Positions 15,001 to 18,000 of a stretch of 23,143 nucleotides of DNA are shown one piece after another. The first letter of the stretch is position 1; every line of letters begins with the position of its first letter. The position numbers were made by a program. Source of the DNA: a virus (taxonomy: Duplodnaviria > Heunggongvirae > Uroviricota > Caudoviricetes); the IMG/VR virus record IMGVR_UViG_2537562189_000005; one strand, 5' to 3'.

Positions 15001-18000
15001 TCTTCCTGACTTCCCCACTGGCGTTTTTTCGCACTGAACACAACCGCGTCAGGGTGTCGGGTTAAAAAATCCTGTTCAGCCGTCTGCGGGTCCGGTTGCG
15101 AAGCGTCCGGACAAGAAGATCTTTTATCTGACGGATCAGGTTTTAATACTGACGGATCGGGGTCAATCATCGGCCCCCTAATCGGCAGTTTTTTATCAAC
15201 AGTTGATCCATCAAAATTTGACGGGTCAACCGTTGAGGGGTCAATATTTGACGGGTCAACTGTTAACGGGTCATTTTTTGCCGGGCTAATTTTTCTTTTC
15301 GGTTTATATGACTCACGCGCCGCCGCCGCAGCTGCTTCGAGTTTTTCCACATTAAGCCGATAGATATTGCTTACATTACGCCCACCGACCTTACGCTCTT
15401 CCTTCGTCAGCCAGCCCTCTTTCGCCAGTTCTGCAATAGCCGATTTCACTGTGGATTCACTTCTTGCACCGATCTGACGCCGGATAGTTTCAATGGCAGG
15501 CCATGACACGCCCTCGTCATTGCTGTAGTCTGCAAGACGGGCCATAACCGCCACCCTGGATAAGATCATGCCGGTGAAGGCGCACCCTTCCCAGACAAGA
15601 CCATGAAGCTTGCTGCTCATAAAACCCCCGAACACCGTGCTTTTAGTGCATCACCACAGCATTCCCTGCCGGGCCGCCGCGATTCATCTGGTCATACAAA
15701 ACAACCGCTGACGCAACAAAATCATCGACATCCTTCACCAGCCGATCCCTCCGTTCGACGATCTCACGGTAATATTCAGAACTGTGGCTGCGCATACGGG
15801 CCACCAGCAAAGGCGGCATCGCCTTTTCGATCGCCGGTAACAGAGCCTGCATTTTTTCAACAGCATCAGGGGTGTCTTTATCCAGCCAACGGAAAATTTT
15901 CTGGGTATTACGGGCCAGGGCTTCCGGATGGCTGTCGTCATACAGTTCCGGGAACGTCATTCCCAGCTCGAAATACGCTTTGGTAATTTTCGCAGCCGGC
16001 ACTTTTTCGCCGTCCGGATGCGCCCAAACATTCATCGCCATGCGGATGTGTTCATGCTTGATTTTCATGAATCATTCTTTCCTTCGTTCGAGGTGCTATC
16101 CTGCTTCTTGTAAAGTTCTGGGTTGTATTTCAATTCACCGTTAGTAATTTCATCCAGTTCCATTGCGCGAAGTTTGGGAATAACTGCTTTCCACCGCACA
16201 ACAGCCACATGTGAAATTCCAAGAGCCTCAGCTACTAGTCGCTTTTTTTTGAAATAGCGCAGAACATCATCTTTGAACATAAAACTCTCCTGTTATTTCG
16301 AGCAGAATGGTAACAATAGTTACACAACAATGTCAACCATAGCAACATCACTTGGTGGTAACATTGGTTACATGAAAAACACTATCAGCGAACGTATTCG
16401 GAATCGTCGAAAAGACGTTGGATTAACCCAACAGCAGGTTGCGAAAGCAATCGGCATATCTCGTGTATCCGTAACAAAATGGGAAAATGGCTCTTCAAAA
16501 CCTGACGGTGAGAATTTGTATCTACTGTCAAAATTGCTTTCCAAATCTCCTGAATGGATTCTTTATGGAAAGGACGGTCACGATAAAACCGATGATCTGC
16601 GTCTGAATCAGTACCCTTACATTAGTGACAACATCGCCCGGTTGCCCGTTTTAACGTGGGAACAGGCTGGTTATTGGGATATGAGTTGTCCAGTAACCAA
16701 GATTCCTGGTATTAAGAACTGGGTTGATGTCATGACAAAAACCGCTGAAAACTCTTTTTTATTGCATGTTGAGGGAGATGCGATGACAAACTCTAACGGC
16801 CTCCCAACCATCCCCGACGGATCTACCGTGCTGATCACACCATGCTCAAGTAACATTAGAGAACTGGTGGGAAAAATAATCTTAATCCAATTGGAAGGAA
16901 CGCCAAACGTAACACTAAAAAAAGTTGCGATTGACGGACCAAACATCTATCTGTTGTCACTGAATCCGCTTTACAAACCCATCGAACTGAATGGTGGTTA
17001 CACCATTAAAGGTAAAGTTTCACAAATACATCAATACTTAGACTGAGTCAGAACCCGCATTCATTGCGGGTTTTTTATGCCCTCAAATGTACCTTTTGCA
17101 ACATTGTATTGACTTGAAAGGTAACTCTTGTTACCTTAACAACATACCAACCCACCCCGCCCCACAGAACGCAGGGAAATACTTCGAGTTACCCGGCAGT
17201 GGTCAGGGGTTAAGTAGCCAGCCCGAGGCGTAAGAACATGACGGCAGGGTTCAACTTTAATAACTATGCAGCAGGTTTTTGTTCCGCTACCCCGGCGTTA
17301 AGGGGAAATGAGGTCAGCATGGATACTATCGATCTTGGCAACAGCGAATCTCTGGTATGTGGCGTGTTCCCCAACCAGGACGGTACGTTCACCGCGATGA
17401 CGTATACCAAAAGCAAAACGTTTAAAACCGAAAATGGTGCCCGTCGCTGGCTGGAAAGAAACTCAGGTGAGTGATATGGATTTCAACACAATCATGGAAA
17501 AGGCTTACGAAGAATACTTCGAAGGCCTTGCCGAAGGCGAAGAAGCCCTCAGCTTCAGTGAGTTTAAACAGGCGCTTTCCAGTTCGGCAAAATCTAACGG
17601 CTGATAAGCGAAACAGCACCGCGAGGAATCAGTATGCAGAAACGAGAACCCGTCATCATCGCGCCAGACTATACCGATGATGAACTTTATGAGTGGATGC
17701 ACCAGAAAATTAAGGCTGCGCAGGACCTGAAATGGGCCAATGAAGCCAGGGCTAAGCAGGCTGAAAATCTGTCCGCTCTGGAGCAGGATATCACCAGGCT
17801 GGAAAAAGCAGCGGCATTAAGCATTGCCAGAATGATTACATACCCGCGTTAATAGCTAACCAACGAGGCTAATAATGGAATTTAAAGATTTACCAATGCC
17901 ATTCCAGGAAATGGCAGCGAATGTGGTTCGCTCTCAACTGGCGACTCTTGACCTGAGTACCGTAGAAAAAGAAACCATCGACAATATATCTGGTAACGTA

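Follow-up and report, generated by a model that had tools for sequence, protein, structure and literature searches.

Lambda cI, like P22 C2 and 434 cI, is a two-domain repressor with a scissile Ala-Gly bond and a Lys general base, and the variants LexA S119A and lambda cI S149A, in which Ala replaces the nucleophilic Ser, do not cleave. Indeed, Slilaty and Little are said to have found in 1987 that this replacement abolishes LexA cleavage. Engineered S24 proteins with Ser-to-Ala or Lys-to-Ala changes, among them the mCI probe and lambda cI K192A, bind RecA* without cleaving (PMC6363387; PMC9926225). In a survey of Shiga toxin (Stx) phages, every CI clade with an S24 domain was reported to have kept the Ser that serves autocleavage in lambda (PMC8951638), and the K-12 prophage Qin has a repressor of another kind, DicA, with 135 amino acids (aa) and neither an S24 domain nor the Ala-Gly bond (PMC10448788). 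Here we describe the immunity repressor encoded in a stretch of 23,143 nucleotides (nt) of viral DNA (Caudoviricetes; IMG/VR record IMGVR_UViG_2537562189_000005), called the window below as a whole, which covers the part from the early to the lysis genes of a lambdoid prophage, Qin-like and integrated beside ompW. This repressor shares the architecture, the fold and the scissile and general-base positions of lambda cI, P22 C2 and 434 cI, but has Ala in place of the nucleophilic Ser, as do LexA S119A and lambda cI S149A, and is a natural counterpart of the laboratory S149A. The engineered non-cleavable S24 proteins are laboratory constructs, whereas this one is a wild, selected allele carried by about 13% of complete Escherichia coli genomes. 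It also resembles the Stx-phage CI clades I-VII, which are lambdoid E. coli S24 repressors with, in some cases, YdaT-family genes beside cI (PMC8951638), but differs from them in having Ala where they have the nucleophilic Ser. What is new, on the evidence of sequence comparison, is that a prophage very common in E. coli has an S24 immunity repressor with a dead nucleophile, a natural allele that is both selected and recurrent; from this we infer the loss of cleavage, the induction phenotype and a role of the C-terminal domain in oligomerisation.

Residues of the repressor are numbered from ATG 16372 (Table 1). The N-terminal helix-turn-helix (HTH) domain matched Pfam HTH_3 with an E value of 3.5e-17 and was 54% identical to K-12 DicA over 70 aa; the NCBIfam DicA model also reached it (E 1.6e-22, 79.7 bits), under its cut-off of 101 and over the N-terminal 80 residues only. 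Peptidase_S24 (PF00717) matched residues 92-216 and 115 of its 116 model positions, with 61.2 bits against a cut-off of 23.3 (E 9.7e-17). In an AlphaFold2 model with a mean predicted local distance difference test (pLDDT) score of 80, for which the top structural match was the lambda repressor, the N-terminal domain resembled that of P22 c2 with a template modelling (TM) score of 0.94. Foldseek matched the modelled C-terminal domain to the lambda cI structures 1kca, 1f39 and 8gmu (TM 0.74-0.78, root mean square deviation 2.2-5.2) and also to LexA and UmuD; as modelled, this domain is a true S24 (LexA/lambda CI) fold. Insensitivity to RecA-mediated cleavage is expected of this repressor, as of K-12 DicA and the short Gifsy-type repressors. 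However, it is not a short repressor of the DicA, RacR or Gifsy type (about 135-160 aa), because it has 224 aa with a whole S24 domain and the Ala-Gly pair.

The nucleophile position of this fold is occupied by Ala137. When all PDB chains were searched with phmmer, the top match was the full-length lambda repressor (3bdn, E 3.4e-14, residues 11-217), and in the alignment hvegdamtnsng stands opposite evegnsmtaptg, which contains Ser149; lambda vqag (Ala111-Gly112) is matched by eqag, and lambda tfkk (Lys192) by tlkk. When lambda cI, LexA and UmuD were aligned with the repressor by MAFFT, with reference sequences entered by hand, the result agreed with that of phmmer in placing Ala137 in the G-x-S-M column. 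The nucleophilic Ser that Peptidase S24 proteins have in G-x-S-M is thus Ala137 in the repressor, which makes the protein an S24 homologue that is presumably not a competent peptidase. Since the defining catalytic feature of the family is lacking, the protein should not be filed as a peptidase; public annotations name it 'LexA family protein', 'S24 family peptidase' or 'SOS-response repressor (RecA-mediated autopeptidase)'. The original prediction, made from the DNA alone, had described a CI/LexA layout with QAG at the scissile position, GDAM for GxSM and a downstream Lys, and this description is borne out by Pfam, phmmer, MAFFT, the family alignment and the fold match. In the alignment with LexA, lambda CI and UmuD that was proposed together with it, the repressor has Ala and no Ser in the nucleophile column. 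The Ala codon was correctly read as GCG at 16780-16782, one transversion from TCG. The VEGDAM motif is present as well, but its range is 16768-16785 and not 16771-16788, which reads EGDAMT and is offset by three bases.

The rest of the catalytic site is kept, including the Ala-Gly of the linker, a bond that in S24 proteins is Ala-Gly or Cys-Gly. Q98-A99-G100 and K183-K184 are invariant across the clade of the repressor and, in the wider family alignment, Q98-A99-G100 is nearly invariant and the K183 column invariant. Among the residues through which lambda cI contacts RecA (PMC9926225), F141 and L143 are conserved in the repressor and F106 is replaced conservatively by Leu, whereas there is no conservation at F121, at F189 or at the two acidic residues D187/E188. 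Pairwise Nei-Gojobori ratios of nonsynonymous to synonymous substitution (dN/dS) were 0.05-0.07 for the C-terminal domain in all the non-saturated pairs, and similarly low between two Ala alleles separated by a dS of about 0.72; for the DNA-binding domain they were 0.04-0.13. The domain with the dead nucleophile is therefore as constrained as the HTH domain. We then considered 150 related proteins of 170-280 aa, made up of previously collected homologues and of representatives of the 50%-identity clusters of a library of 1.84 billion proteins. The nucleophile column held Ser in 128 of them, Ala in 10 (five from the clade of the repressor), Thr in six and other residues in a few. By this count nucleophile loss is recurrent among phage HTH-S24 repressors, and the clade described here is unusual among the Ser-less relatives in that the remaining catalytic apparatus is kept.

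The repressor gene was present in 702 of 5,426 complete E. coli genomes, with at least 99% identity in 630 of them; the carriers include the pandemic sequence type 131 (ST131) lineage, and have a median of one copy and a maximum of two. Of 683 E. coli records, 681 matched a 62-mer centred on the Ala codon with 100% identity, and GCG was kept in the one record inspected of the two that had one mismatch. According to this prevalence and the near-universal identity of the 62-mer, the Ala codon is no sequencing artefact; the exact protein is moreover recorded on more than 1,000 contigs. A comparison of the codon in related prophages, proposed together with the original prediction, gives a double answer: the Ala allele is fixed, yet some relatives have Ser. 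In E. coli, the window type and its 97% variant have GCG, as does P0002 (89% aa identity), and Ala was found in 14 of 14 E. coli and E. albertii cluster members read. The Salmonella cluster P0005 (70% aa identity) encodes Ala by another codon, GCA, in 14 of 14 members read. Ser is encoded by TCA in the E. coli loci L012 and L040 (84% nt identity; eight complete genomes) and in P0003 (88% aa identity), which comes from sequencing-run (Logan) assemblies, and by TCG in P0006 (66% aa identity), from a sequencing-run (Logan) assembly. All relatives of 52% identity or less, from various organisms, have GDSM or GESM, with the exception of the degenerate Arsenophonus P0022.

By neighbour joining, the Ala alleles of E. 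coli, three in number, clustered with a weak support of 55% and the three TCA-Ser alleles at 84%, and the Salmonella Ala and P0006 Ser alleles branched outside both groups; support values at the deeper nodes are unreliable after rerooting. Every reconstruction on this topology needs at least two changes between Ser and Ala. Ala137 is, by these comparisons, a fixed, selected and recurrent allele state and no lesion. Elsewhere, GTDB species representatives gave only distant relatives, at 52% identity or less, and no repressor more than 43% identical was found in 50,697 deposited phage genomes, an absence that is weakly consistent with poor inducibility.

We propose that the window encodes a natural repressor of the non-inducible (Ind-) type, in which the S24 fold is kept for oligomerisation without self-cleavage, and that the prophage is blind to the SOS response at the level of this repressor; we hold this to be probable. 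Non-cleavability is deduced here because the change of Ser to Ala at the nucleophile is known to abolish S24 self-cleavage. Changes of Ser or Lys to Ala are the usual way of making S24 proteins non-cleavable for structure determination. Ser-to-Ala forms were found among the solved structures matched by Foldseek (1jhh, 6a2s and 8s7g), and these, together with 8gmu, are engineered Ser-to-Ala or Lys-to-Ala proteins that fold normally. The repressor would bind GGTAAC-N4-GTTAC at the PR-like promoter, on the side of cro, ydaT and the replication genes, and at the PL-like promoter, on the side of ydfABC-dicF-dicB-exo-xis-int. The nucleophile-dead S24 domain would be a pseudo-protease that selection maintains, its likeliest use being to form dimers and to make operator binding cooperative, and RecA* would be unable to inactivate the repressor through stimulated self-cleavage. 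Exit from lysogeny would then be SOS-independent only, through a stochastic flip of the CI/Cro type or a factor supplied in trans. By analogy, a spontaneous flip and relief by an antirepressor are plausible exits for this prophage. Indeed, experiments on Qin have shown that the DicA/DicC switch is derepressed spontaneously in a subpopulation, without an antirepressor, and also that the antirepressor Rem derepresses it (PMC10448788).

Several points weigh against this proposal. Outside the clade of the repressor, Ala-Gly is kept in only two of 18 Ser-less relatives, compared with 96 of 126 Ser-bearing ones, and the preserved Ala-Gly and Lys hint that the site may still be used. Copies of the immunity module occur in unrelated lineages and at two sites, and horizontal movement of the module, for which lytic growth or recombination is required, must therefore still take place. 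An antirepressor may also be supplied in trans from another prophage. Moreover, since isolation never succeeds for many prophages, little weight can be put on the absence from phage collections, and our literature search gave no paper on this repressor, nor any on a natural Ser-to-Ala CI repressor or on whether this prophage can be induced in ST131.

The repressor could be non-cleavable and the prophage nevertheless SOS-inducible, through a LexA-controlled antirepressor that is encoded elsewhere in the genome or is an unrecognised small protein of the prophage. Gifsy repressors, 186 CI with Tum and DicA with Rem operate in this way; the Gifsy repressors are relieved by trans-acting antirepressors (PMC3121763), and the N-terminal domain of the window repressor is DicA-like at 54% identity, DicA being the repressor relieved by Rem (PMC10448788). 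In addition, related ompW prophages such as Sakai Sp9 have an annotated antirepressor in their lysis cassette, several small open reading frames (ORFs) of the window have no assigned function, and the spread of near-identical modules implies that the phage can still be activated somehow. However, K-12 Qin has Rem, whereas tblastn with K-12 Rem gave no match in the window or in the prophage loci L001 (JJ1886), L002 and L006 (2013C-3181), and the same sequences contained no homologue of the Ant protein ECs_1785 of Sakai. No antirepressor is annotated over the whole element, and the unannotated ORFs, scanned with Pfam, PHROGs, NCBIfam and PADLOC, received no regulator or defence assignment. A gene for a conserved 92-aa protein at 8545-8823 (minus strand, phrog_1212) lies between the DUF968 gene and hokD, which is the position of rem in K-12 Qin, but has no similarity to Rem and was set aside. 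The LexA-box pattern CTGT-N8-ACAG was not enriched in the window (12 matches for 7.3 expected). The sole strong LexA-box-like site, AACTGGATATTTTTACAGTG at 5125-5144, scored 21.6 bits on a weight matrix of 20 E. coli SOS boxes, for which shuffled windows gave maxima with a median of 11.0 and a 95th percentile of 17.1. This site was rejected as an antirepressor control because it is not placed ahead of a small ORF but falls among the opening codons of a gene for an N6_N4 DNA methyltransferase (4085-5152, minus strand). The site is kept, at 23.6 bits each time, in JJ1886 (L001 8769) and, in Sakai Sp9, where the methylase gene ECs_1780 begins (L015 22989). Neither the pattern nor the matrix scan gave a convincing LexA box ahead of any small ORF. 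Furthermore, those repressors of this group that are known to be under antirepressor control are short proteins with no S24 domain. We consider induction through such an antirepressor a minor possibility, and the failure to find one in the prophage leans towards SOS-blindness in cis.

The intact Ala-Gly bond might instead be cut in trans by a Ser-bearing S24 partner, which could be a homoimmune Ser allele, another CI, LexA or UmuD. Intermolecular cleavage has been shown for LexA and lambda CI fragments, but in trans both CI and LexA are cut slowly and only at high concentrations of the enzyme. UmuD is cut intermolecularly inside its dimer (PMC9926225), Ala-Gly and Lys are kept in all the Ala alleles while Ala-Gly is mostly lost in the other Ser-less relatives, and Ser and Ala alleles with identical operators coexist in the species. 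Nearly all genomes are nevertheless single-copy, the Ser allele is found in eight complete genomes only, and recent or repeated switching between Ser and Ala explains the kept site equally well, which makes cleavage in trans improbable. It is just as hard to credit that Ala is a neutral or degenerative lesion, devoid of functional meaning, in a decaying cryptic prophage. Signs of decay, in the form of IS insertions and broken genes, do exist in copies of the prophage, for example an IS421 with a frameshift and a 363-aa gene that is split, both in the window, and an IS1203-disrupted exonuclease and a frameshifted integrase in the O111:H8 copy. However, both repressor domains are under strong purifying selection (dN/dS about 0.04-0.13), Ala is kept between alleles at a dS of about 0.7 and, through another Ala codon, in Salmonella, the other catalytic-site residues are invariant, and many carriers have complete structural genes. 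A misleading alignment, with another Ser or Thr acting as nucleophile, is barely credible: a Thr lies two residues and a Ser four residues downstream of Ala137 (GDAMTNSNG), but according to three independent alignments and the fold match the Ser column is occupied by Ala137. The Salmonella Ala allele has Pro instead of the downstream Ser, and lambda has the Thr too (GNSMT) without using it as the nucleophile. Finally, the Ser and Ala alleles are probably one immunity group, because their operators are common and their Cro proteins nearly identical, and one could imagine, tentatively, that the nucleophile codon is an evolutionary toggle on which repeated single-base changes switch such a group between Ser (SOS-inducible) and Ala (SOS-blind). 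Such a switch would be reversible because Ala-Gly, Lys and possibly the RecA-docking surface are preserved. The Ala allele would have swept to about 13% of sequenced E. coli through protection of the host from damage-triggered lysis and dicB/dicF expression; it may give SOS-proof immunity or, by analogy with engineered dead CI fragments, titrate RecA*.

Returning to a repressor that is non-cleavable and SOS-blind in cis, quinolones and other SOS inducers should not activate the prophage or its dicB/dicF cell-division inhibitors, and the locus would be a clean natural case of SOS-blindness arising from one base change in an otherwise intact switch. The coexisting Ser and Ala alleles with identical operators form a natural pair for measuring what SOS inducibility costs or brings to the prophage and to its host. 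Predictions of inducibility based on a peptidase-type annotation would go wrong for roughly one complete E. coli genome in eight, those of ST131 among them.

The surrounding features (Table 1) make up what is, as read from the DNA, a complete lambdoid switch, with operators at both early promoters, divergent cro and ydaT genes and a terminator. The palindrome GGTAAC-N4-GTTAC occurs at 16309, 16357 and 17120; the operator pattern gave seven matches for 0.28 expected, and none of 100 shuffles reached seven. GGTAACAATAGTTAC is identical in all seven homologous loci, including those of Salmonella and P0006, despite diverged flanks. The exact pattern of GGTAACATTGGTTAC is found in L013 and L003, and it is recognisable in most of the other relatives, less so in Salmonella. 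At the position of GGTAACTCTTGTTACC, GTAAC-N4-GTTACC is kept in the E. coli relatives and in L010. The PR-like promoter, in which a TG extends the -10, matched at 10 of 12 positions, and the 10-bp stem of the terminator, which is followed by a U run, is kept in the E. coli relatives and L010. The cro-like gene matched the NCBIfam DicC model with an E value of 3.2e-15, under the cut-off of that model, and its homologues matched Pfam P22_Cro. As in lambda, the cro gene is divergent, operators lie at both early promoters and a terminator follows the repressor gene; unlike in lambda, a YdaT-family protein takes the place of CII, and the leftward operon is ydfABC-dicF-dicB and not N-cIII.

Table 1. 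Features of the immunity region and of the adjoining genes, by position in the window
Feature	Position	Strand	Basis or remark
CI-type immunity repressor gene	16372..17046	+	224 aa from ATG 16372 (ORF, translation)
N-terminal helix-turn-helix DNA-binding domain, DicA / P22 C2-like	16396..16560	+	Pfam HTH_3, residues 9-63
Ala99-Gly100, kept; scissile-bond position (lambda cI Ala111-Gly112)	16666..16671	+	phmmer and MAFFT alignments
GCG codon, Ala137; nucleophile position (lambda Ser149, LexA Ser119)	16780..16782	+	alignments
Lys183, kept; general-base position (lambda Lys192)	16918..16920	+	phmmer alignment
Intrinsic terminator 3' of repressor gene	17050..17078	+	fold -15.1 kcal/mol, z -4.8
PR-like sigma-70 promoter toward cro-like gene	16307..16336	-	TTGACA, 18 nt spacer, TG-TACCAT
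Putative operator GGTAACAATAGTTAC	16309..16323	.	overlaps -10 and spacer of PR-like promoter of cro-like gene
Putative operator GGTAACATTGGTTAC	16357..16371	.	directly adjoins ATG 16372, OR3-like position
Putative operator GGTAACTCTTGTTACC	17120..17135	.	3' of repressor gene, in TTGACT-containing PL/dicBp-like region
Divergent cro-like gene (DicC / P22_Cro family)	16065..16280	-	RefSeq 'Cro/CI family'
YdaT-family gene, CII position	15643..16068	-	RefSeq 'toxin YdaT family protein'; Pfam YdaT_toxin on homologues
Presumed repressor-controlled leftward operon: ydfA, ydfB, ydfC, 124-aa ORF, DicF, dicB	17319..18970	+	RefSeq, near-identical locus L002
DicF small RNA	18556-18607	+	Rfam 75.8 bits
dicB	18782-18970	+	RefSeq annotation of L002

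The start of the repressor deserves a comment. Its open reading frame (16273-17046, plus strand) contains two in-frame ATGs, at 16330 and 16372, and RefSeq uses the upstream one, which gives 238 aa. The codons of the 14 extra residues (16330-16371) run across the PR-like -35 and the second operator, and the 'NIGY' of the RefSeq extension is GGTAACATTGGTTAC translated. In a MAFFT alignment, distant homologues, including Hamiltonella P0007 (52% identity), begin at the MK... that corresponds to ATG 16372. In lambda, OR3 adjoins the start of cI, which is leaderless. The RefSeq start may be wrong, or the repressor mRNA may be leaderless like that of lambda cI.

As to the wider context, the integrase gene ends at the edge of the window and adjoins ompW in near-identical loci (JJ1886, 2013C-3181, ETEC6). 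Beyond dicB, the plus strand carries ydfD, the exonuclease gene, xis and int, and the layout matches dicC-dicA-ydfABC-dicF-dicB of K-12 Qin; the repressor thus shares with DicA its genomic position and its neighbours, a dicC-like cro, ydfA, ydfB and ydfC, DicF and dicB. Structural gene sets are complete in many carrier prophages. Near-identical modules occur in unrelated E. coli lineages, at ompW and at yccA, beside different replication genes. In E. coli O111:H8 05-3004 (L041, 7959-8675), an Ala-type immunity module of 99.6% nt identity lies in a prophage at yccA that differs from the window in its replication gene, in its integrase, which is of another kind and frameshifted, and in the IS1203-disrupted exonuclease; the immunity module is therefore shuffled between prophages. 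In E. coli 2013C-3181 (L006, 1-3768), the prophage has as neighbours a truncated piece of ompW and another set of exonuclease, xis and int genes, which indicates tandem or nested prophages at ompW, comparable to those of O145:H28 (PMC8112680). The O145:H28 ompW prophages, which may or may not share this immunity type, were reported to be excised but not packaged after mitomycin C (PMC8112680). The ompW prophages of Sakai (Sp9) and E2348/69 were rejected as proxies: their immunity cassettes are different, and published data on them are therefore not applicable.

Other parts of the window carry features of their own. The adjacent ORFs at 10834-11409 and 11469-11930 (plus strand) correspond to the first and second halves of phrog_12777 (352 positions), a gene that is single and of about 363 aa in 2013C-3181 and E2348/69; the window copy is thus broken. 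According to the 2013C-3181 annotation it belongs to a three-gene block on the plus strand, with 11927-12355 and a gene within 12285-12989, and this block gave no Pfam or PADLOC match. An IS421-family transposase gene (9027-10145, plus strand), annotated as frameshifted in a near-identical locus, sits between the DUF968-side genes and the hokD/sok toxin-antitoxin locus (10338-10663, minus strand; Rfam sok 117 bits). A gene for a PemK/MazF-family toxin (5842-6321, minus strand) lies between the Q antiterminator and DNA methyltransferase genes. The small RNA family STnc100 is represented on the minus strand by two copies in tandem, at 2189-2378 and 2442-2638 downstream of the late-region genes, with Rfam scores of 141 and 121 bits.

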